The notes under the pieces: generated by a model
The model's database searches: none
What the model was told of the DNA's origin: nothing
What the model saw: the letters and a program-made list of their open reading frames with translations, nothing else
IMG/VR virus record: IMGVR_UViG_2531839528_000015
Origin: a virus
Taxonomy: Duplodnaviria > Heunggongvirae > Uroviricota > Caudoviricetes
DNA: 32,429 bases
Reading direction: 5' to 3' (one strand)
Part shown: piece after piece, positions 1 to 27,242 of the stretch
Position numbering within the stretch: position 1 is the stretch's first letter
Layout of the letters: the number at the start of each line of letters is the position of its first letter
Made by a program: the position numbers and the translations under genes

Positions 1-452
1 AACACCAGCAAACAGATAAAAAAGGGCCAGCCAATTGGCCAGCCCTTCTTAACAGGATGTCGCTTAAGCGAAATCTTAGTTAAGACGCTCCCAATAAAAC
101 CACATAAAAAACATATAATTATAATAAAAACAATTAGTTAATTTAATTTTTAATGCAGTGAATTGCAATATTCTGCAACCTCCGCCGCCACTTTGCCGCC
201 ACTTAAAGCTTTATACCACACAGACTTTAGTATACCCGAGTGAAACGCTAACACATGAGGTAGTTGGAAAATTTCCGTATATGTTGTAATATTGATACGC
301 ATTATATGATTTTTACCTGATATAATGTAATTATTAGCTTCAAAATTATTTTTGCACGAATCAGGTATTACCAAGTAGTTGTCAGTTTTTAAAAACCCAA
401 CATCCTAAAATTAGCATTGTTTTTTAACCACAAAACATCCACGGAGAAGAAC

Positions 453-1262
453 GTGTCAAAAAAGGATACAATCCAGATTATCGATATCAGGATGCAGAGA
501 CCAATCATAGCAAGAATAGAAGAAGAAAATTTAAATTTGACATTGCAAATGTCAGATAAAGCCACATTATCTGGTGCGACAGTTAGTTTTTTCACCCCAA
601 ATAACGTTTCTATATTCTTATCCTCAGCAAAAAAAGAGCTCTCAAAATCCAATTCTATATATAAAAGTCTTTTTGGAAAAATACACAAAACCAAACATAA
701 AAACTTTAAAATTTCCGACAAAGACCTGCCGAGACTCTATAATTACTTTGAATCAATTCAGACGGCCATTATTTCTATGTATACTGCAATTGAGTCTTTT
801 GCAAATATATGCATACCACATGATTATGTTTATGAAAAAAACAATGCCAAGGGAATCAAAGAATCCTATAGCAAAGAGCTAATTGAGCGATATATACCAA
901 CAAGTGAAAAAATAGATAAAATCCTACCGTCTATTTTAAATTGTGATTCGCCTAAAGGTTCAAAACTATGGCAAGATTTTAAAAGCCTTGAGTCACTTAG
1001 AAATGACATAATTCACCCCAAGACAACAAAGAAAAACACAGAAACAAAAGAAGACTCATCTTTTTTATGCATTTTACTATCAGATGACTTTATAAAAAAA
1101 GTTTCCTGTGGATTTGATTTGGTATCTTATTTTTGCAAACAAGACACTACTCATAGTCTTTTCCCAATGGGTTTCGGTGAAATTGAACTTAAACCTGTCC
1201 CAATTAAAGCCGGTGACTTTGAAAAAGTTGATGATCATGATGAAATAGAATTACCATCATAA
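453..1262 (+). CDS. Hypothetical AT-rich accessory protein next to the integrase 3' end, with a possible HEPN-like Rx4H motif
   Basis: ORF-track frame 417..1262 opens with TTG. An in-frame GTG at 453 is preceded by GGAG at 443-446, so 453 is the preferred start; the first in-frame ATG is at 492. Translation is Lys/Asn/Ile-rich, unlike the backbone. Motif R-N-D-I-I-H at residues 195-200 (nt 999-1016). Confidence 0.5.
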   Translation: MSKKDTIQIIDIRMQRPIIARIEEENLNLTLQMSDKATLSGATVSFFTPNNVSIFLSSAKKELSKSNSIYKSLFGKIHKTKHKNFKISDKDLPRLYNYFESIQTAIISMYTAIESFANICIPHDYVYEKNNAKGIKESYSKELIERYIPTSEKIDKILPSILNCDSPKGSKLWQDFKSLESLRNDIIHPKTTKKNTETKEDSSFLCILLSDDFIKKVSCGFDLVSYFCKQDTTHSLFPMGFGEIELKPVPIKAGDFEKVDDHDEIELPS

Positions 1263-1378: not shown

Positions 1379-2419
1379 TTAATCTTTCCATTTAAAACCA
1401 TTACATAATGTTAAAGGATTAAATGTTACAGCCTCCTCAAGATGATCCGGGGAGAAATGTGCATACTTCATAGTTTCACGAATATTCGCATGACCGAGTA
1501 TACGTTGCAGCACAAGAATATTCCCGCCATTCATCATAAAATGAGCGCCGAAGGTATGACGCAGAACGTGTGTCTTTTGCCCTTCCGTCAGTTCGATATC
1601 CGTTAGTTTGAGCATCTTTTTAAACTCCTGATAGCAAGGCTTAAACATCTTTCCCTGCCTTTCAGATAATTCGTCATACAACCATTTTGGGATCGGAACG
1701 GTTCGATTCTTTTTCCCTTTCGTTTTGGTGAAGGTCAGTTTATGTGGCGAGAGCTGGGGACGTGTCAACCTCTCAGCCTCACCCCATCTAGCACCTGTTG
1801 CAAGACAAATCTTAACAATCATGGTGAGGTCTTCTTTTCCGTATTGCTCGCATGCCTGAAACAATTTCGGAATTTGAGACAAAGTGAGCCAAGACATTTC
1901 TTTCTCGGCTTCCTTGAAAACACGGACTCCATCAAGTGGATTTGGTAAGCTCCACTCCCCTAGCCTTTTGAGCTCATTAAATACAGCCTCAAGATATTGT
2001 TGCTCACGATTGACAGTTATCGGTTTAGCAATCCATTTTGCCGGGTCTTTATGATAGCCATTATCTATCTCCCCCCGAAGTCGGCGGTCACGGTAATGAG
2101 CCCAATCTTTAGCAGTAAGGCGGGATGCAATAGGGTCACCAAGTCCATTACACACGATTTGAAGTTTAGCTAACCGCGACTTACTGGCGACCAGTGCCTG
2201 TCCGTGTAAATTATGCCAAAGCTGGATAATCTCACTTAAGCGTCGGCGGTCTTCTTTCTTGCCGAGCCACGGCTTATCCTCACTCTCACTTTTCGTAAAT
2301 GCTTCGAATGCCTCGGCCTCACCTTTGGTATTGAATTGCCGACGTATACGCCGCCCTTCTCGACCATTTGGATAGAGCTCGCATAACCATTTGCCATTTT
2401 TTTGCTTACTTACAGTCAT
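1379..2419 (-). CDS. int: Tyrosine integrase (P2/186 family)
   Basis: 346-aa ORF with ATG start at 2417-2419. C-terminal tyrosine-recombinase motifs HVLRHTFGAHF and LGHANIRETMKYAHF. Lies at the prophage end, transcribed the same way as the repressor. Confidence 0.9.
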   Translation of the reverse strand: MTVSKQKNGKWLCELYPNGREGRRIRRQFNTKGEAEAFEAFTKSESEDKPWLGKKEDRRRLSEIIQLWHNLHGQALVASKSRLAKLQIVCNGLGDPIASRLTAKDWAHYRDRRLRGEIDNGYHKDPAKWIAKPITVNREQQYLEAVFNELKRLGEWSLPNPLDGVRVFKEAEKEMSWLTLSQIPKLFQACEQYGKEDLTMIVKICLATGARWGEAERLTRPQLSPHKLTFTKTKGKKNRTVPIPKWLYDELSERQGKMFKPCYQEFKKMLKLTDIELTEGQKTHVLRHTFGAHFMMNGGNILVLQRILGHANIRETMKYAHFSPDHLEEAVTFNPLTLCNGFKWKD

Positions 2420-2788: not shown

Positions 2789-3649
2789 TTACACGTGTTT
2801 TTCCAATGTGAAAACTACAGCCCCGGCAGGAGTAATGTCTGTAATGTTGCATTCAAACTCAGCAGACTTATTTGACAACCTGACTTTTCCACCGGGCAAG
2901 CGAATTACATCAAAAACATCAAGAGCGCCGTCGATATCAATTAACCAGCGACCATTACTTATATTCGAAGCAGAACAGTCGACAAGCCAAGAGGCAGCTA
3001 CACCGTCAACAAAAATCAATTCCCCTGAGTTAGAAGGAATCATTGAGGGGTCAGGATGCCACGTTCCTGCATCCTTAAGCTCACCAGATTCAAGACGAGA
3101 TTTTTTAATAGAAAAACCAGATGTGACATCTTCCCTGTTAGCTCGCATTTGCCCCTTGCCTGTTGCTAACCATTCCAGTGACGTATCGGTATCAAGAGCG
3201 CATGTAACAACAACATCACCAGGGAAAAAATCTCGCCTTACCCATGTGCTAATTGTGCCAGAGGAAATGCCGAGCAAATCACCGAGCTCCTTTTGCATGG
3301 TAAAGCCATACGCATCAAGAATCCTACGCAAAACGGTTTTACCACCATTCGTCATAATCTCGTCATAAAGCTCTTTGCCTTTTAACTTGCAACTGGCTCG
3401 CTCGTGATTTGCATTTGCAAGTTCTCCATTTACAAGCCAATTGATATCAGCTCCCGTGTCAAGACAACACCTAACTATGACATTGCCAGGTATTGCATCA
3501 CGCTGAACCCAGCCGCTAACGCTGTGTTTAGCGATACCTAGCAGGTCAGCCAAATCCTTTTGCATCTTGACCCCATAGGCTGACATTAAGCGTTCCAATA
3601 CGCCGTTCGTTGCACTAACACGCCACTGAACATCAAGCTCAGAACTCAT
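2789..3649 (-). CDS. cI: Phage 186-type CI repressor with tandemly duplicated N-terminal HTH domain
   Basis: 286 aa. Two internally repeated segments align: GVLERLMSAYGVKMQKDLADLLGIAKHSVSGWVQRDAIPGNVIVRCCLDTGADINWLVNGE and TVLRRILDAYGFTMQKELGDLLGISSGTISTWVRRDFFPGDVVVTCALDTDTSLEWLATGK. They are followed by a CI C-terminal-like domain. No S24 peptidase Ser/Lys motifs recognised. Divergent from the apl-like gene. Confidence 0.8.
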   Translation of the reverse strand: MSSELDVQWRVSATNGVLERLMSAYGVKMQKDLADLLGIAKHSVSGWVQRDAIPGNVIVRCCLDTGADINWLVNGELANANHERASCKLKGKELYDEIMTNGGKTVLRRILDAYGFTMQKELGDLLGISSGTISTWVRRDFFPGDVVVTCALDTDTSLEWLATGKGQMRANREDVTSGFSIKKSRLESGELKDAGTWHPDPSMIPSNSGELIFVDGVAASWLVDCSASNISNGRWLIDIDGALDVFDVIRLPGGKVRLSNKSAEFECNITDITPAGAVVFTLEKHV

Positions 3650-19721: not shown

Positions 19722-20597
19722 CTAGCCTCGTAAATATCGTTTAGTAAATTTCGTGTTTGGTCTGGATGATAGGATTTGTCTTTCTATTTCACTATCACAG
19801 TCTATATAGTCTAGTGTATTAGCTTCTATAAGTTTGTTCACGTCAATATTTTTTGCATCGATTATGTTGGCATTTCTAAGGTTTGCATTGGTGTATTCCA
19901 CTTTATCCAAATCACACTCTCTGAGTACGCAACTTTTCATTTCCGCATTGGAAAAATCCCCACCATATAAATAGCAGCCTTCAAAAATAACACCGTTTAA
20001 CTTTGAATCCTGAGCTTTAATATTTTTTATTTTACACTTTATAAATTTTACGTTTTTCATTTTGCTCTTGCTAATATTTAATGCCTGGATTGTACATCCA
20101 GTGAAAGAACAGTCTCTTATGTTAGATTTTTCCATATTTAACCCAGATAGTTCTGAGGTTTTAAAGTGTAAGTATTTAATGGTAAAAAGGTCACCCAACT
20201 CCATTCTGGGTATGTCTATATTGAAGACACCTTTATTGTTGAGCTGTCTTATTATTTTTATTTTTTGTATTTTCAAATCAACATTAACGTGCTTAGCTAA
20301 GTTTCCCAAATCCTCAAGAAGTTCATTAATCGTTTCTTTGTTTTGTCTTCTGTATTCAAAGTAATAAAGGATGACACCTAATACAAAAAAATCCAAAATG
20401 GATGAATTTGCATTTATTAGGAACCCAGACAGGAATGAATCATTGTAATTACCATAGTGTATAGAGGCAAGTGTTACGCCAAATGCATATAAAATAAAAA
20501 TAATAAACACGTGCTTCATTTTGCATAAGGATTGTATTATTGGTTTTATGGCATCAATTTTGTTCATTGCTGCAGCAGCGAAAGATTTAAAAGTCAT
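19722..20597 (-). CDS. Membrane-anchored pentapeptide-repeat protein (AT-rich moron at the P2 orf30 position between S and V)
   Basis: 291 aa. Two hydrophobic helices (VFIIFILYAFGVTLASI and ILDFFVLGVILYYF), then pentapeptide-repeat-like sequence (NISKSKMKNVKFIKCKIKNIKAQDSKLNGVIFEGCYLYGGDFSNAEMKSCVLRECDLDKVEYTNANLRNANII). Opposite strand to both neighbours. Confidence 0.7.
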   Translation of the reverse strand: MTFKSFAAAAMNKIDAIKPIIQSLCKMKHVFIIFILYAFGVTLASIHYGNYNDSFLSGFLINANSSILDFFVLGVILYYFEYRRQNKETINELLEDLGNLAKHVNVDLKIQKIKIIRQLNNKGVFNIDIPRMELGDLFTIKYLHFKTSELSGLNMEKSNIRDCSFTGCTIQALNISKSKMKNVKFIKCKIKNIKAQDSKLNGVIFEGCYLYGGDFSNAEMKSCVLRECDLDKVEYTNANLRNANIIDAKNIDVNKLIEANTLDYIDCDSEIERQILSSRPNTKFTKRYLRG

Positions 20598-22645: not shown

Positions 22646-23246
22646 CCGGCTATTACCCGTTGGCTCGTCGCCGCTGGAGGTTGCCGCCGCTGCCGCGCTC
22701 TCTGAGATTCAGCGTGTGCCGGTACCGCTGCGCACTCTGTGGAACTGGCGCACCTGCCCGGTAAAACTGCTGCCGTATCTGGCGTGGGCGCTGTCGGTCG
22801 ACAGGTGGGATGAGAAATGGCCGGAGGCGACAAAGCGTAGCGTCTGCGCGTCCTCGTTTTTCGTCCATCAGCACAAAGGCACCATTAGCGCATTGCGTCG
22901 GGTGGTTGAGCCGCTCGGCTTTCTGATTGAAGTGCGCGAGTGGTGGCAGCTCAACGAGGAGCCAGGCACATTCCGCCTCGTTGTCGGCGTGCTCGATAGC
23001 GGCATTACTGACGAAATGTATCAGGAGCTTGAGCGCCTGATTGAAGACGCCAAACCGGCAAGTCGCCACCTGACCGGGCTGGCTATCAGTCTGAGCTCGA
23101 CCGGCGAACTGTATGTCGGCGCGGGATGCTATCACGGCGACGCGCTGACTGTTTACCCCTACACCCCCGAGGAGATTGTCGTCGGCGGTGAATATTACCC
23201 GGCCTCGGCCATCCATTTGATTGATAACCTGAGAGTGAACGCATGA
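22638..23246 (+). CDS. I: Baseplate/tail protein (P2 gpI-like)
   Basis: 202 aa, overlapping the J stop. Confidence 0.85.
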   Translation: MNDRLLPVGSSPLEVAAAAALSEIQRVPVPLRTLWNWRTCPVKLLPYLAWALSVDRWDEKWPEATKRSVCASSFFVHQHKGTISALRRVVEPLGFLIEVREWWQLNEEPGTFRLVVGVLDSGITDEMYQELERLIEDAKPASRHLTGLAISLSSTGELYVGAGCYHGDALTVYPYTPEEIVVGGEYYPASAIHLIDNLRVNA

Positions 23247-24199
23247 CCGCAAAATATTTTGCCATTCTGACCAATCAGGGCGCGGCGCGGCTGGCGAACG
23301 CGGCGGCACTCGGTACCAAACTCAACCTGACGCAGATGGCCGTCGGTGATGCGAATGGTACGTTGCCGACCCCTGACCCGGCGCAGACGAAGCTCATTAA
23401 CCAGAAACGCATCGCGCCGCTGAACCTGCTGACCGTTGACCCGGCCAATACCAGTCAGATTATCGCGGAACAGATTATTCCCGAGAATGAAGGTGGTTTC
23501 TGGATCCGCGAGATTGGTCTCTATGACGATGATGGTATTCTGATTGCCGTGGCGAACTGTCCGGAGACCTACAAGCCACAACTGCAGGAGGGAAGCGGTC
23601 GCACGCAGACCATTCGCATGATTCTGATTGTGTCGAGCACATCGGCAATCACCCTGAAAATCGACCCGGCAGTCGTGCTGGCAACGCGCCAGTATGTCGA
23701 CGACAAGATTATCGAGGTGAAAGGATATGCTGATGACCTGATGAAAAAACATGTTGAGGCCGCCAATCCACACAAGCAGTACCCGTTAATCGCTAATGCT
23801 CTGAAAGAAATGGTTGACGCGGGACTGGCCGGCGACGTTCTTAAAAACCTTGGTTTGGGGGAATTGGCTCTGGCTGGCGCAACAACCGGCGCTATGTTGG
23901 TGAATGGGTATGTAGCAATTCCATTAATTATTTCTGGCGTTCGGAGACCACTTATTATCCAGTGGGGAGTGGGGCAGTTTGGGGGAAGTCTGGGGGATGA
24001 TGCGGGATATTTAAACAATTTCCCTTTCGCTTTTCCGTCGGCGTGCTACGTGATGGTTGCCAGCCACGTGGGGCATACACCTTCGGGTGCCGGAATACTA
24101 TCTGCTTCCGCAATCACAAAAAGCGGCTTTCGTGGTTTTTCCAGCGTAGCGACTGCCGCAAATCCTGTATCGGGCTGTTATGTTGCTATAGGAGGGTGA
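23243..24199 (+). CDS. H: Tail fibre protein (P2 gpH-like): conserved N-terminal part fused to the currently expressed variable C-terminal part
   Basis: 318 aa, begins MTAKYFAILTNQGAARLANAAALGTKLNLTQMAVGDANGTLPTP. A hix-like crossover site lies inside the ORF at 23838-23863. Confidence 0.85.
   Translation: MTAKYFAILTNQGAARLANAAALGTKLNLTQMAVGDANGTLPTPDPAQTKLINQKRIAPLNLLTVDPANTSQIIAEQIIPENEGGFWIREIGLYDDDGILIAVANCPETYKPQLQEGSGRTQTIRMILIVSSTSAITLKIDPAVVLATRQYVDDKIIEVKGYADDLMKKHVEAANPHKQYPLIANALKEMVDAGLAGDVLKNLGLGELALAGATTGAMLVNGYVAIPLIISGVRRPLIIQWGVGQFGGSLGDDAGYLNNFPFAFPSACYVMVASHVGHTPSGAGILSASAITKSGFRGFSSVATAANPVSGCYVAIGG
23838..23863. other. Candidate invertase crossover site 1 (hix/gix/cix-like) inside H
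   Basis: ttcttaaaaaccttggtttgggggaa resembles hixL (TTCTTGAAAACCAAGGTTTTTGATAA, from memory), with a central TT. Confidence 0.6.
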
Positions 24200-24200
24200 T

Positions 24201-24635
24201 GTGTTTTTTAGTCCATCTTTAAATATTTTTGTGAATCCTGCGCTTAAGGATGACTACATCAATGTAAATTCATGGCCAGATGATGCTGTTGAAGTTGATG
24301 AGCAGGTGTATATTGAGTTTTCCGGATTACCGCCGAAAGGAAAAATCCGTATCGCTGGGGAAAATGGTTTTCCTGCATGGTCTGAAATTCCACCACCAAC
24401 GCATGAGGAACAGATTGCCGCAGCCGAATTGAAAAAACAGCAATTGATTAATCAGTCCAACGAATATATGAATACCAAGCAATGGCCTGGTAAAGCGGCT
24501 ATTGGTCGTCTGAAAGGTGAGGAACTGGCGCAATATAATTTGTGGCTGGATTATCTGGACGCACTGGAACTGGTTGATACCTCCAGTGCTCCAGATATTG
24601 AATGGCCTACGCCTCCGGCAGTTCAGGCCAGATGA
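24201..24635 (+). CDS. Tail fibre assembly chaperone (Tfa, P2 gpG-like)
   Basis: GTG start with GGAGGG upstream. C-terminus ...LDYLDALELVDTSSAPDIEWPTPP matches the C-terminus of the convergent Tfa'. Confidence 0.8.
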   Translation: MFFSPSLNIFVNPALKDDYINVNSWPDDAVEVDEQVYIEFSGLPPKGKIRIAGENGFPAWSEIPPPTHEEQIAAAELKKQQLINQSNEYMNTKQWPGKAAIGRLKGEELAQYNLWLDYLDALELVDTSSAPDIEWPTPPAVQAR

Positions 24636-25200
24636 TATCCGGCGCGGTGCTGGTATCTGTTGCCGTCACCGCGTCAATGTAATCCAGCACGGCGTTAAGT
24701 CGGGTTGTTTCTGCCTGAGTCAGTTTCCGTCCGGCCTGTAATTTCAGCTGAATCAGACTGATGGAAGCCATTGCAGCATCAATCAGTGACTGGCGCTGTG
24801 CTTCTGCCGCTTCTACTGCGGCACCGTGTTGTGCCTCAGTATCTGTCACCCATTTCTCACCATCCCATTTATCATATGGCGTTAACGGTGAAATCGTGAC
24901 ATAACCGTCTTTGATGGCACCGATATAATCCACTGTAACAGCTGCGCCATTTTCGATTAAGTAAACAGTCTCATTGCGATGGTCTTCTTCATGGCTCCAT
25001 CCCTTACCTGTAAATACTGCCACTCTTCCCGGAATGTTTTCGCCAGGGTCAATACCAGTGGAACAGGCGGGCATACTTACGCCAGTATTAATATATTCAT
25101 CAGACCAGCCCGTATACTCAGATGTTTCAGCATCATAATAAAAACAACGCATATCGCCCGGCACTGTAGCCAGCCCATTTTCATCAAAAACAGGTTTCAT
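24607..25200 (-). CDS. Alternative tail fibre assembly chaperone (Tfa') in the inverted orientation
   Basis: 197 aa. C-terminus ...LDYIDAVTATDTSTAPDIIWPELP. Converges on and overlaps the Tfa 3' end. Confidence 0.75.
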   Translation of the reverse strand: MKPVFDENGLATVPGDMRCFYYDAETSEYTGWSDEYINTGVSMPACSTGIDPGENIPGRVAVFTGKGWSHEEDHRNETVYLIENGAAVTVDYIGAIKDGYVTISPLTPYDKWDGEKWVTDTEAQHGAAVEAAEAQRQSLIDAAMASISLIQLKLQAGRKLTQAETTRLNAVLDYIDAVTATDTSTAPDIIWPELPEA

Positions 25201-25652
25201 TATTTAGCCCTCACCAGAAAGTTAAATGCAATATTTCGCGGTCTGACAGCAACAAAATTCACACCATCACCCACAGAGTTACTGGTGAAATTAAATCGTG
25301 AAAATCCTGGCTGATTTCCGGCGATGCCATCATGAAAGTTAATTGCGTGTCCCGCACCTCCGCCTATATTCCCGGCAAACTGAGAAAAGTTTGTAGCTTC
25401 CTGCCAGCTTAATAATTCGCGACCACCGTCTGCACCTCGCCCGTCATCCCAGATACGAATGAAATCACCGCGGGCTTCAGGTAATACCAGCGAAGGAAAC
25501 ACTTTCGCCAGCACAGGATAATCAGTGGCAGAGAATTTCGCGCCGTTGAACTTCAAAAACACCATACTGGACCAGCTGTCGATTACAGTATTTGGCATTG
25601 CAGCGGACGGCCAGAAGAACGGAACGCCAATAGCTGGAGCACCTTCTCCCAA
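25200..25652 (-). CDS. Silent alternative tail-fibre C-terminal segment (Hv')
   Basis: 150-aa frame with no ATG (the track start is TTG). It opens LGEGAPAIG directly inside crossover site 2, and an in-frame stop lies just upstream, so it is expressed only after inversion. Confidence 0.7.
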   Translation of the reverse strand: MGEGAPAIGVPFFWPSAAMPNTVIDSWSSMVFLKFNGAKFSATDYPVLAKVFPSLVLPEARGDFIRIWDDGRGADGGRELLSWQEATNFSQFAGNIGGGAGHAINFHDGIAGNQPGFSRFNFTSNSVGDGVNFVAVRPRNIAFNFLVRAK

Positions 25653-25670
25653 ACCAACCTTTTAGAAAAC
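25645..25670. other. Candidate invertase crossover site 2, inverted relative to site 1
   Basis: Reverse complement gttttctaaaaggttggtttgggagaa matches site 1 at about 21 of 27 positions. Central dinucleotide is AA on the + strand. Confidence 0.55.
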
Positions 25671-25723
25671 GCAGATATTCCGTTCAGCTGGCATGATCCC
25701 GACTTTTTACCGGGTTATTTCTC

Positions 25724-25965
25724 ATGTTTATCGGTTATGTACGTGTATCAACAAATGACCAGAACACCGCATTACAGCGAAATGAACTGGAGTGCGCAGG
25801 ATGTGAGCTGATTTTCGAAGATAAAATCAGCGGCAAAACATCAGACTGGCCGGGCTAAAGAGGTTACTCAGAACCTTGTCAGAGGGCGATACGCTTGTGG
25901 TCTGGAAACTGGATCGCCTCGGGTATCTCAACGCTATACAAAAAATTTCCCGCATCCGTTGCTGA
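25724..25965 (+). pseudogene. Serine DNA invertase (Hin/Gin/Cin/Pin family) remnant, frameshifted and C-terminally truncated
   Basis: ATG 25724 gives MFIGYVRVSTNDQNTALQRNELECAGCELIFEDKISGKTSDWPG, then TAA at 25856. A second frame continues GDTLVVWKLDRLG to TGA at 25963-25965. The HTH domain is missing, and only about 80 of the expected 190 residues are present. Confidence 0.75.
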
Positions 25966-25984
25966 TGTCTCAATGTGTCAGACA
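25966..25984 (+). promoter_or_regulatory. Candidate Ogr-type late promoter dyad upstream of FI
   Basis: TGTCT-N9-AGACA dyad (TGT-N13-ACA) about 80 bp upstream of the FI start. The P2 late-promoter consensus as I recall it is TGT-N12-ACA. Confidence 0.3.
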
Positions 25985-26063
25985 TCGCCCAACACTGACA
26001 AATAGCCCCTCAACAGACCAGCCAGGACAATAACACTTGCCCACTAACCACGGAGTTAACCGG

Positions 26064-27242
26064 ATGAGTGATTTTCACCACGGCGTGCAGGTGCTTGAGA
26101 TTAACGACGGCACCCGCGTCATTTCCACTGTTGCAACCGCAATCGTCGGCATGGTCTGTACAGCCAGCGATGCGGATGCGGCAACCTTTCCCCTCAACGA
26201 GCCGGTACTGATTACCAATGTGCAAAGCGCCATTGCGAAAGCCGGTAAAAAAGGCACGCTGGCCGCGTCCCTGCAGGCCATCGCCGACCAGTCAAAACCT
26301 GTCACAGTTGTCGTGCGTGTTGCCGAAGGTACCGGAGAAGACGCCGAAGCGCAGACCATTTCCAATATCATCGGCGGCACGGATGAGAACGGTAAATATA
26401 CCGGCATCAAGGCGCTGTTGACTGCCGAAGCAGTCACCGGCGTTAAGCCGCGCATTCTCGGCGTGCCGGGTCTCGATACCAAAGAGGTCGCAGTCGCACT
26501 TGCTTCGGTCTGTATCAGCCTGCGCGCCTTTGGCTATATCAGCGCATGGGGTTGTAAAACCATTTCCGAGGCGATGGCCTATCGCGAGAATTTCAGCCAG
26601 CGCGAGCTGATGGTCATCTGGCCTGATTTCCTTGCATGGGATACCACCACAAACGCCACCGCACCGGCATACGCAACTGCGCGCGCACTCGGCCTGCGTG
26701 CCTATATCGACCAGACCGTCGGCTGGCACAAAACCCTGTCTAACGTCGGCGTGCAGGGTGTTACCGGCATCAGTGCGTCAGTGTTTTGGGATTTGCAGGC
26801 ATCCGGCACCGATGCTGATCTGCTCAACGAGGCCGGGGTCACGACACTGGTGCGTAAGGATGGCTTCCGCTTTTGGGGTAACCGCACCTGCTCTGATGAC
26901 CCGCTTTTCCTGTTTGAGAACTACACCCGCACCGCGCAGGTGCTGGCCGACACGATGGCCGAGGCGCACATGTGGGCGGTCGATAAGCCCATCACCGCAT
27001 CACTTATCCGTGACATTGTCGACGGCATTAACGCCAAATTCCGCGAGCTGAAATCAAACGGCTACATCGTGGACGGTGAATGCTGGTTCGACGAGGAATC
27101 GAACGATAAGGAAACCCTCAAGGCCGGGAAACTGTATATCGACTACGACTATACACCGGTTCCACCACTGGAAAGCCTGACCCTGCGCCAGCGTATCACC
27201 GATAAATATCTGGTGAATCTGGCCGAATCGGTCAACAGCTAA
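26064..27242 (+). CDS. FI: Tail sheath protein (P2 gpFI-like)
   Basis: Start moved to ATG 26064 with GGAG at 26052-26055. Product begins MSDFHHGVQVLEINDGTRVISTVATAIVGMV. Confidence 0.9.
   Translation: MSDFHHGVQVLEINDGTRVISTVATAIVGMVCTASDADAATFPLNEPVLITNVQSAIAKAGKKGTLAASLQAIADQSKPVTVVVRVAEGTGEDAEAQTISNIIGGTDENGKYTGIKALLTAEAVTGVKPRILGVPGLDTKEVAVALASVCISLRAFGYISAWGCKTISEAMAYRENFSQRELMVIWPDFLAWDTTTNATAPAYATARALGLRAYIDQTVGWHKTLSNVGVQGVTGISASVFWDLQASGTDADLLNEAGVTTLVRKDGFRFWGNRTCSDDPLFLFENYTRTAQVLADTMAEAHMWAVDKPITASLIRDIVDGINAKFRELKSNGYIVDGECWFDEESNDKETLKAGKLYIDYDYTPVPPLESLTLRQRITDKYLVNLAESVNS

Follow-up and report, generated by a model that had tools for sequence, protein, structure and literature searches.

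A tail-fibre inversion switch of a P2-family prophage with a dead invertase, very probably flipped by invertases encoded elsewhere in the host

Does an invertible DNA segment become fixed once the invertase gene next to it has decayed? The question is raised by the tail-fibre operon of a P2/186-like (Peduoviridae) prophage, which was analysed within a stretch of 32,429 nucleotides (the 32-kb window). A sequence-only reading had described a Gin/Cin-type invertible segment here and had concluded that the switch is probably locked unless a related invertase acts in trans. Its identification of the locus holds: this is a Gin/Cin/Pin-type invertible tail-fibre segment with an adjacent invertase pseudogene in a P2-family prophage, and it is a derived, non-autonomous member of the Gin/Hin/Cin/Pin (Din) serine-invertase inversion systems. 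The kind of system is already known, a textbook Din-family switch with a modest twist. The main new result comes from sister copies in other E. coli genomes, in which, judging from genome comparison, the segment of this dead-invertase lineage still appears to invert. We consider it very probable that the locus is a Pin/Gin/Cin/Hin-family inversion switch whose own invertase is dead and which depends for its flipping on Pin-family invertases from other loci of the host.

Two alternative tail fibres in one segment

The invertible region lies between gene I and the sheath gene FI (Table 1), and the segment has a GC content of 48%, compared with 57-58% in the flanks. The proposed content, a variable fibre end with its chaperone on the plus strand and an alternative chaperone with an ATG-less fibre end on the minus strand, was borne out by Pfam and phrog matches. 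The two variable ends, Hv and Hv', matched different families (gp53-like C domain and phrog_3100 type, respectively), with none in common in the scans. Hv' has no ATG, and a TAA is located just upstream of it, inside the outer half-site.

Table 1. Features of the inversion switch, in window coordinates
Feature	Position	Strand	Description
H	23243-24199	+	318 aa; Phage_tail_fib N-terminal domain and gp53-like C-terminal domain
Constant part of H, up to the crossover	23243..23850	+	Pfam Phage_tail_fib, residues 1-150, E 9e-63
Left 26-bp site (hix/gix/pix type), inside H	23838..23863	+	0 mismatches to consensus pattern
Invertible segment	23851..25656		1806 bp; homologous to e14 P segment
Hv, current expressed variable C-terminus of H	23851..24199	+	Pfam Gp53-like_C, E 8e-12, H residues 237-317
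Tfa, tail-fibre assembly chaperone paired with Hv	24201..24635	+	Pfam Caudo_TAP, E 3e-35; phrog_188, E 1.5e-61
Tfa', alternative chaperone, silent in present orientation	24607..25200	-	Pfam Caudo_TAP, E 1.5e-27; phrog_105, E 6e-84
Hv', alternative tail-fibre C-terminus	25200..25656	-	phrog_3100 'tail fiber protein', E 1.5e-52, profile positions 210-381 of 382
Right 26-bp site	25644..25669	+	2 mismatches to pattern (outer half reads CCTTTT)
Pin/Gin-type invertase pseudogene	25724..26005	+	Alignments to intact genes; PGAP annotation in N21 and E1535
Candidate recombinational enhancer	25745..25808	+	Two conserved G-N13-C 15-mers, 25745-25759 and 25794-25808

Inversion of 23851-25656 in silico at the TT core yielded an in-frame H of 354 aa, reading ...DVLKNLGLGEGAPAIG..., followed by Tfa'. 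This is the fusion of H to Hv' that had been predicted for recombination at the core, and E. coli E1535 carries it. In this strain the prophage is in the flipped orientation, and the annotated tail-fibre gene measures 1065 bp, the length expected for 354 aa. Tfa' follows directly on the plus strand, and both genes are annotated as intact CDSs. The locus thereby has the hallmark of the invertible tail-fibre switches Mu G, P1 C, e14 P and p15B, an in-frame union of one constant 5' fibre gene with either of two 3' ends that each precede a chaperone gene of their own.

In the proposed mechanism, a serine invertase would pair the two 26-bp sites and exchange strands at the 2-bp core, whereupon the 1806-bp segment would invert. 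The constant 5' part of H would be joined in the present state to Hv, followed by Tfa (318-aa fibre), and in the flipped state to Hv', followed by Tfa' (354-aa fibre). Inversion would thus change the receptor-binding tip of the fibre, and the two fibres probably differ in host range.

One of the closest known systems is the P segment of e14 with pinE in E. coli K-12 (stfP/stfE, tfaP/tfaE), whose copy in strain EC43 is 98.3% identical to the window's segment over 1806 bp. Both have the same layout of two convergent chaperone genes, two fibre C-termini and an invertase gene just outside the right site. Whereas the e14 segment sits on the side-tail-fibre gene of a lambdoid element, that of the window has been joined to H in a P2/186-like myovirus prophage, and its invertase is a deletion pseudogene with a 5' part about 85% identical to pinE. 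The G segment of Mu with Gin (S/U, S'/U') follows the same logic, the fibre C-terminus being swapped together with its chaperone. However, the G segment is about 3 kb long, has the core GA/TC and carries unrelated cassettes, and it is inverted by its own, intact Gin. P2-like prophages that combine an intact invertase with an invertible H-G region (for example ECJXMCRH7; EPEC E2348/69; Fels-2 Fin) have it at the same position between I and FI. The window's segment is 98.8% identical to that of a P2-like prophage with intact invertase, and the segment of the ECJXMCRH7 prophage, in which the invertase is intact, is 99.9% identical to that of strain N21. The difference lies in the invertase, which has its full 197 aa in these prophages and has lost 311 bp in the window's lineage.

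Crossover sites and the enhancer-like stretch

The 32-kb window was searched with the consensus hix/gix pattern TTN5AAACC NN GGTTTN5AA, allowing up to two mismatches. Exactly two matches were found (0.13 expected from shuffles; 1 of 100 shuffles reached two), and both sites align with hix-family sites. The left site, TTCTTAAAAACC-TT-GGTTTGGGGGAA with the core TT at 23850-23851, lies in H exactly where it had been proposed. Its inverted partner exists too, one base pair away from the position 25645-25670 given for it before. The right site reads TTTTCTAAAAGG-TT-GGTTTGGGAGAA in reverse complement, has its core AA at 25656-25657 and includes CCTTCTCCCAAACCAA, which has been published as the inverted repeat of e14 (PMC12529663). 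The two sites are in inverted orientation, and the same pair is the longest inverted repeat in a repeat search of the window.

In each site, two imperfect inverted half-sites of 12 bp flank a core of 2 bp, as they do in e14, in the intact P2-like systems and in Mu gix, which was picked up with the same pattern. The core dinucleotide is identical in both sites, TT on the left and AA, i. e. TT on the other strand, on the right, which permits religation after the exchange. E1535, with the segment flipped, has GGGAGAA in place of GGGGGAA in the inner half of the left site, the swap that core exchange should produce. The distance of 67.5 bp from the right-site core to the invertase start is the same in Mu, from gix to gin. 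Next to its core, the right site has CC in the outer half as opposed to CG in intact systems, which could lower invertase binding. Within the segment the pattern search with up to two mismatches gave no extra crossover site. Multiple inversion, as in p15B or in the EPEC locus with three repeats, was considered as well and was rejected because this search showed no third site.

Just beyond the right site, in the 5' part of the invertase remnant, lie the two 15-mers of the candidate enhancer, both conserved between the window and Mu gin, e14 pinE and one intact P2-like invertase. Their centres are 95.5 and 144.5 bp from the crossover. This position agrees with the enhancer of Hin, where the proximal Fis site is reported to be located about 100 bp from hixL (PMC3798978). 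Homology to the Fis enhancer region and position suggest that the retained 5' stretch may work as an enhancer. The deletion in the invertase gene ends downstream of it.

The invertase pseudogene

The remnant starts with MFIGYVRVSTNDQ... and does contain the catalytic N-terminus (GYVRVSTNDQ) noticed earlier: codons 1-67, including VSTNDQ, are retained and after repair match residues 1-67 of Gin (PDB 4m6f) with an E value of 3e-29. The sequence-only reading had listed a TAA at 25856 and a frameshift as separate lesions. Both are real, but they are one event, since it is the loss of one G at 25852-25854 (GGGG to GGG) that shifts the frame by -1 and creates the TAA at 25856-25858. Truncation before the DNA-binding domain, with an end of the remnant at 25965, did not hold up. 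Instead, a deletion has removed 311 bp from the interior of the gene, and its junction lies at about 25923/25924, where ...VVWKLDRLG (ending at 25923) is joined to the last codons, ...STLYKKFPAS...DK-stop; about 27 codons are kept at this end, and the pseudogene extends to 26005. The deletion took out most of the catalytic domain plus the DNA-binding domain. A functional adjacent serine invertase, with catalytic domain and C-terminal helix-turn-helix, is hence not present, and PGAP already annotates the remnant in N21 and E1535 as a frameshifted, incomplete recombinase pseudogene.

A close copy of pinE was considered as the origin of the remnant, the match to e14 averaging 95% across it, and was rejected on direct alignment to pinE, which gave about 85%. 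The remnant fits the 197-aa P2-like invertase type better, including the C-terminal tail ending in ...DK-stop.

Of 5426 complete E. coli genomes, 35 (about 0.6%) have this deletion junction. Three sub-types occur among them: 7 carry the deletion alone, 14 have the -1 G in addition, and the other 14 have an insertion of ATCA (+4). As all three share it, the deletion is ancestral; the -1 frameshift came later. In the proposed course of events these two lesions would have killed the element's own invertase, and the cis elements, i. e. both sites and the 5' gene stretch corresponding to the Fis-dependent enhancer, would have outlived it. With the invertase dead and the cis elements surviving, a non-autonomous switch would result.

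Inversion after decay of the invertase

One conceivable outcome is a locked relic, in which the segment has been frozen since the death of the invertase and the prophage makes the Hv fibre only. The invertase is clearly non-functional and the outer half of the right site slightly degenerate, and the three genomes that contain the full-length query at 99.3% identity (N21, E1739 and JKHS016) all have the segment in the window's orientation. In the chromosome of N21 no match to pinE-internal or pinQ sequence was detected at megablast sensitivity. Thus some hosts may really hold the switch locked.

For the lineage as a whole, however, this reading conflicts with three independent genome pairs that carry the same dead invertase and have the segment in opposite orientations: N21/E1535, CH423/CH425 and KE40/EC1. 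Within each pair, one segment is the exact reverse complement of the other, without a mismatch over 1806, 1865 and 1933 bp, respectively, and the flanks, pseudogene included, differ by 0-1 base each. The left flank, on the constant H side, shows 1 mismatch in 3651 bp between N21 and E1535 and is identical in the other two pairs, whichever the segment orientation. CH423 and CH425 are from the same hospital, have genomes of 4,740,904 and 4,740,899 bp and look like a single clone. An intact copy of the same invertase was looked for beside the segment in the flipped genomes and was not found. As the pairs share the same invertase deletion, the inversions would have happened after the decay, and the invertase would hence have been supplied in trans. 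The claim that the switch is probably locked is therefore not supported for the lineage, and the escape clause of a related invertase acting in trans is. At the lineage level the switch appears not to be locked. Cross-action of Pin-family invertases on such sites has also been shown by experiment (PMC12529663), and we regard the locked relic as unlikely.

Alternatively, the opposite orientations could predate the decay, the identical lesions having been spread by homologous recombination or having arisen twice. Exchange of P segments among prophages is evident: copies with the same invertase remnant vary widely in their cassettes, and the silent cassette of the window is an allelic mosaic. Yet the same 311-bp deletion and -1 frameshift would have had to be transferred, or to arise anew, on three occasions without any mismatch, next to segments that differ by 0 bases and flanks that differ by 0-1. 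Moreover, only about 270 bp lie between the site and the deletion junction, a stretch in which the available intact-gene donors are just about 85-88% identical. This makes an origin of the orientations before the decay very improbable.

RecA-dependent recombination between short inverted repeats, or an assembly artefact, could in principle also produce such pairs. The two sites have a perfect 10-bp stretch in common (TTGGTTTGGG; 13 of 14 bases if extended), and either orientation can be picked by assemblers. But the breakpoints are confined in all three pairs to 10 bp around the invertase core, and 10 bp is below the generally accepted minimum for RecA-dependent exchange. For an assembler to have a choice of orientation, the culture must have contained both. 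We give hardly any credence to this explanation.

Inversion by an invertase encoded elsewhere in the host is thus the preferred reading. The enzyme would be, for example, pinE of e14, pinQ or pinR, or an invertase of other P2-like, Mu-like or P1-like elements. PinE, PinQ and PinR all invert the e14 segment (PMC12529663), and inversion of tail-fibre loci in culture is on record for P2-like prophages of EPEC (PMC4272514). Action of an invertase from a different prophage is thus known, for PinQ and PinR on e14 (PMC12529663) as for Fin on the Salmonella H segment. In those cases the segments keep their own working invertase, whereas in the window's lineage the foreign enzyme is obligatory. No specific description of an invertible segment that is inverted in trans beside its own pseudogenised invertase came up in our literature search.

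Candidate enzymes were sought in the genomes of the lineage. With a chimeric query, E1535 had 3 extra loci matching pinQ or the deleted part of pinE-type genes, the K-12 control also had 3, and the CH423 clone gained 2 places once invertase-specific sequence was joined to the query; such counts do not separate intact from damaged invertase genes, nor do they show expression. When the chimeric query was run for the 35 remnant genomes, intact pinE-type genes outranked the remnant. An undeleted gene of the pinE type is present at another place in the genomes of EC12, EC15 and EC18.

For genome annotation and studies of phase variation this means that a pseudogenised invertase beside an invertible segment does not amount to a fixed state, since the orientation can depend on the recombinases of other prophages in the cell. 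If the segment is flipped in trans, the tail-fibre type, and with it probably the host range, would be set in this lineage by the prophage content of the host.

Since the deletion, the remnant lineage has acquired at least 6 different cassette combinations and has undergone at least 3 flips, which would fit continued use rather than decay. Possibly, and we suggest this only tentatively, the lineage is a selected non-autonomous switch that has kept its sites and the enhancer-bearing 5' stub and switches host range only in hosts with prophages that encode a Pin-family invertase. It offers natural material for asking whether the 5' stub of the invertase is kept because of the enhancer. An analogy to such a switch is the reliance of MITEs on transposase made elsewhere.

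Prophage context and recombination sites

The window covers the greater part of a P2/186-like (Peduoviridae) prophage. Apart from the integrase it encodes a CI-type repressor and CII/CP76, followed by genes for replication, head, lysis and tail. With the invertible segment left out, 5357-32429 is 99.98% identical to a prophage that lies next to ssrA in E. coli E1535. The order round the switch is V, W, J, I, H, Tfa / Tfa', Hv' / invertase remnant / sheath FI / tube FII, where H is the tail-fibre gene, Tfa a chaperone and Tfa'/Hv' the silent alternative on the - strand.

The 286-aa CI-type repressor (2789-3649, - strand) has two separate Phage_CI_repr helix-turn-helix matches and one CI C-terminal domain, which suggests that the DNA-binding domain is duplicated or that the ORF was called too long. 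Past the integrase, the left end (1-1378) has a very low GC content (33-39%) and may be prophage cargo adjoining the attachment site; its ORF 417-1262 (+ strand, 281 aa) is without a Pfam match and matches phrog_17113 (function unknown; E 1e-180). A predicted membrane protein of 291 aa that contains pentapeptide repeats (19722-20597, - strand; Pfam Pentapeptide_4, E 4e-19) is encoded in a stretch of ~39% GC, with the tail-completion genes on one side and baseplate gene V on the other, a slot typical for a moron (accessory gene). Among 5426 complete E. coli genomes just 4 have an identical copy of this gene and its flanks, and sister prophages have a different hypothetical gene in the slot.

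Features of the switch and its surroundings
Feature	Position	Strand	Remarks
Integrase	1379-2419	-	
Left site	23838-23863		TTCTTAAAAACC TT GGTTTGGGGGAA
Right site	25644-25669		reverse complement = TTTTCTAAAAGG TT GGTTTGGGAGAA
G-N13-C 15-mer, first	25745-25759		conserved in window, Mu gin, pinE and intact P2-like gene
G-N13-C 15-mer, second	25794-25808		conserved in the same four
Sheath FI	from 26065		

The longest inverted repeat within 22-27 kb is 23836-23875 versus 25632-25671. The hix/gix consensus pattern has exactly two matches in the whole window (0.13 expected by chance), and these are the two inverted sites proposed by the sequence-only reading, although it had placed the second one base off. 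The right site includes CCTTCTCCCAAACCAA, the published inverted repeat of e14 (PMC12529663); its outer half-site has CC beside the core, where intact systems have CG, a difference that might reduce invertase binding. H (318 aa) combines a Phage_tail_fib N-terminal domain of the P2 type with a gp53-like C-terminus, and Tfa and Tfa' are each a Caudo_TAP chaperone. Hv' aligns with tail-fibre families over their C-terminal half; it is without a start codon, and a stop lies directly upstream within the outer half-site. In silico reverse complementation of 23851-25656 gave an open 354-aa H reading ...DVLKNLGLGEGAPAIG..., as expected from the proposed in-frame fusion of constant H to Hv'. The convergent 3' ends of Tfa and Tfa' overlap by 29 bp (24607-24635), and those related E. 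coli loci for which the annotation was checked show this overlap too. An inverted repeat close by (24545-24562 / 24671-24688) stems from a C-terminal chaperone motif common to both.

The segment (1806 bp) shares 98.3% identity with the e14 P segment of strain EC43 and 98.8% with the segment of a P2-like prophage with an intact invertase. The distance from site core to invertase start codon, 67.5 bp, is the gix-to-gin distance of Mu. Thus, by its identity to e14, the right-site repeat and this spacing, the switch is a classical member of the Gin/Hin/Cin/Pin family, on a P2-family tail-fibre gene. Flipping of such an arrangement is documented for EPEC P2-like prophages (PMC4272514). The window's tail-fibre switch is an unexceptional one of the Din family that had been annotated before, and its invertase is a deletion pseudogene.

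Lesions of the invertase remnant

The lesions were defined by aligning the remnant with pinE, Mu gin and an intact 197-aa invertase at the equivalent position in another P2-like prophage (ECJXMCRH7). Comparison with known invertases had been proposed; the first 67 codons, which contain the active-site motif VSTNDQ, aligned end to end with Gin (PDB 4m6f; E 3e-29) once the frameshift was repaired. The first lesion is a -1 frameshift, GGGG to GGG at 25852-25854. Since this creates the TAA at 25856, the stop and the frameshift noted earlier are both present but are a single event. The second is a 311-bp internal deletion that fuses ...VVWKLDRLG (end 25923) to ...STLYKKFPAS...DK and the stop (end 26005). 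It took the middle of the invertase, leaving only a minor part of the catalytic domain and hardly any of the helix-turn-helix. The invertase is thus not truncated before its DNA-binding domain, as had been thought; its last codons are kept, and the remnant ends 40 bp further on.

The PGAP annotation of the E. coli genomes N21, E1535 and others calls the matching locus a recombinase pseudogene, frameshifted and incomplete. Of 5426 complete E. coli genomes, 35 have the deletion junction (window 25800-26064) at full length: 14 lack one G as in the window, 7 have the deletion only (e.g. EC15), and 14 have a +4 ATCA insertion in place of the -1 G. Because all three sub-types have the 311-bp deletion in common, the deletion came first and the two frameshifts followed independently. 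In the deposited record of Escherichia phage vB_EcoM-613R3 (ON470592.1, 4761-5075) the +4-insertion form is annotated as a 104-aa 'DNA invertase', an annotation artefact in which the ORF passes through out-of-frame sequence.

Inversion after invertase decay

Three genome pairs within the dead-invertase lineage differ by an exact inversion. Once reverse-complemented, the 1806-bp segments of N21 and E1535 have 0 mismatches, with 1 mismatch per ~3.5-kb flank. CH423 and CH425, from one hospital (genomes of 4,740,904 and 4,740,899 bp), differ by an inverted 1865 bp with 0 mismatches, and 0 in flanks of 1648 and 3834 bp. The inverted 1933 bp of KE40 and EC1 likewise has 0 mismatches, as do the flanks. 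The three pairs carry three different cassette sets and therefore represent independent events. In E1535 each site carries the inner half of the other, and the breakpoints are thereby narrowed to the 10 bp surrounding the core. Within each pair the two genomes have an identical pseudogene; thus the inversions postdate the death of the invertase, and the recombinase must have been supplied from elsewhere. For the lineage, the earlier verdict 'probably locked' is not supported, whereas its proviso of an invertase acting in trans is.

Alternatively, inversion could have preceded decay and the lesions spread later. However, this needs three trace-free transfers of one deletion across a ~270-bp stretch in which the available donors are just ~85-88% identical. 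RecA-dependent exchange would have only 10 bp of identity to use and must strike the invertase core every time, and a choice of orientation by the assembler would itself imply mixed populations. Inversion after decay is a modest addition, i.e. comparative evidence that such a switch still flips without its own enzyme.

In sister prophages (L004, L005, L008, L009, L010) the dead invertase occurs with at least six different Hv/Tfa cassette combinations; cassette turnover therefore continued in the lineage. Segment length among dead-invertase copies ranges from 1806 to 1933 bp. Compared with the near-identical N21 and E1535 copies, the window's silent Tfa'/Hv' has 20 clustered substitutions (blocks 24636-24730, 24894-24959 and 25428-25542) and the expressed Hv-Tfa half none. 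The last block agrees with the MINF_2E allele at every position. This clustering suggests patchy recombination among P segments.

Candidate enzymes in trans and the retained 5' stub

A chimeric query combined a prophage-specific marker, the pinE-type sequence deleted here and pinQ. The K-12 control gave 3 places, presumably pinE, pinQ and pinR. Beyond the marker, E1535 and E1739 gave 3 places each and JKHS016 2. The CH423/CH425/CH458 clone gained 2 places once invertase-specific sequence was joined to a cassette-only query, and in EC12, EC15 and EC18 the chromosome carries a pinE-type gene without the deletion at another place. All these counts are of sequence matches and no proof that the invertase genes are intact. 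In experiments PinE, PinQ and PinR each invert the e14 P segment (PMC12529663). In N21 the chimeric query, run at megablast sensitivity, found no place on the chromosome beyond the marker; this strain may be without a compatible invertase, and in some hosts the switch may in practice be locked.

Of the 5' coding sequence, 199 bp survive in the remnant. The Hin, Gin and Cin systems have their enhancer inside the invertase gene, in its 5' coding part. Measured from the crossover, the centres of the stub's two conserved 15-mers are at 95.5 and 144.5 bp; Hin has its Fis-bound enhancer ~100 bp from hixL (PMC3798978). As the first 15-mer overlaps catalytic-motif codons, its conservation could be explained by coding constraint, and for this reason we infer rather than assert an enhancer function: the stub is a candidate recombinational enhancer. 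Every cis element needed for inversion in trans appears to be present.
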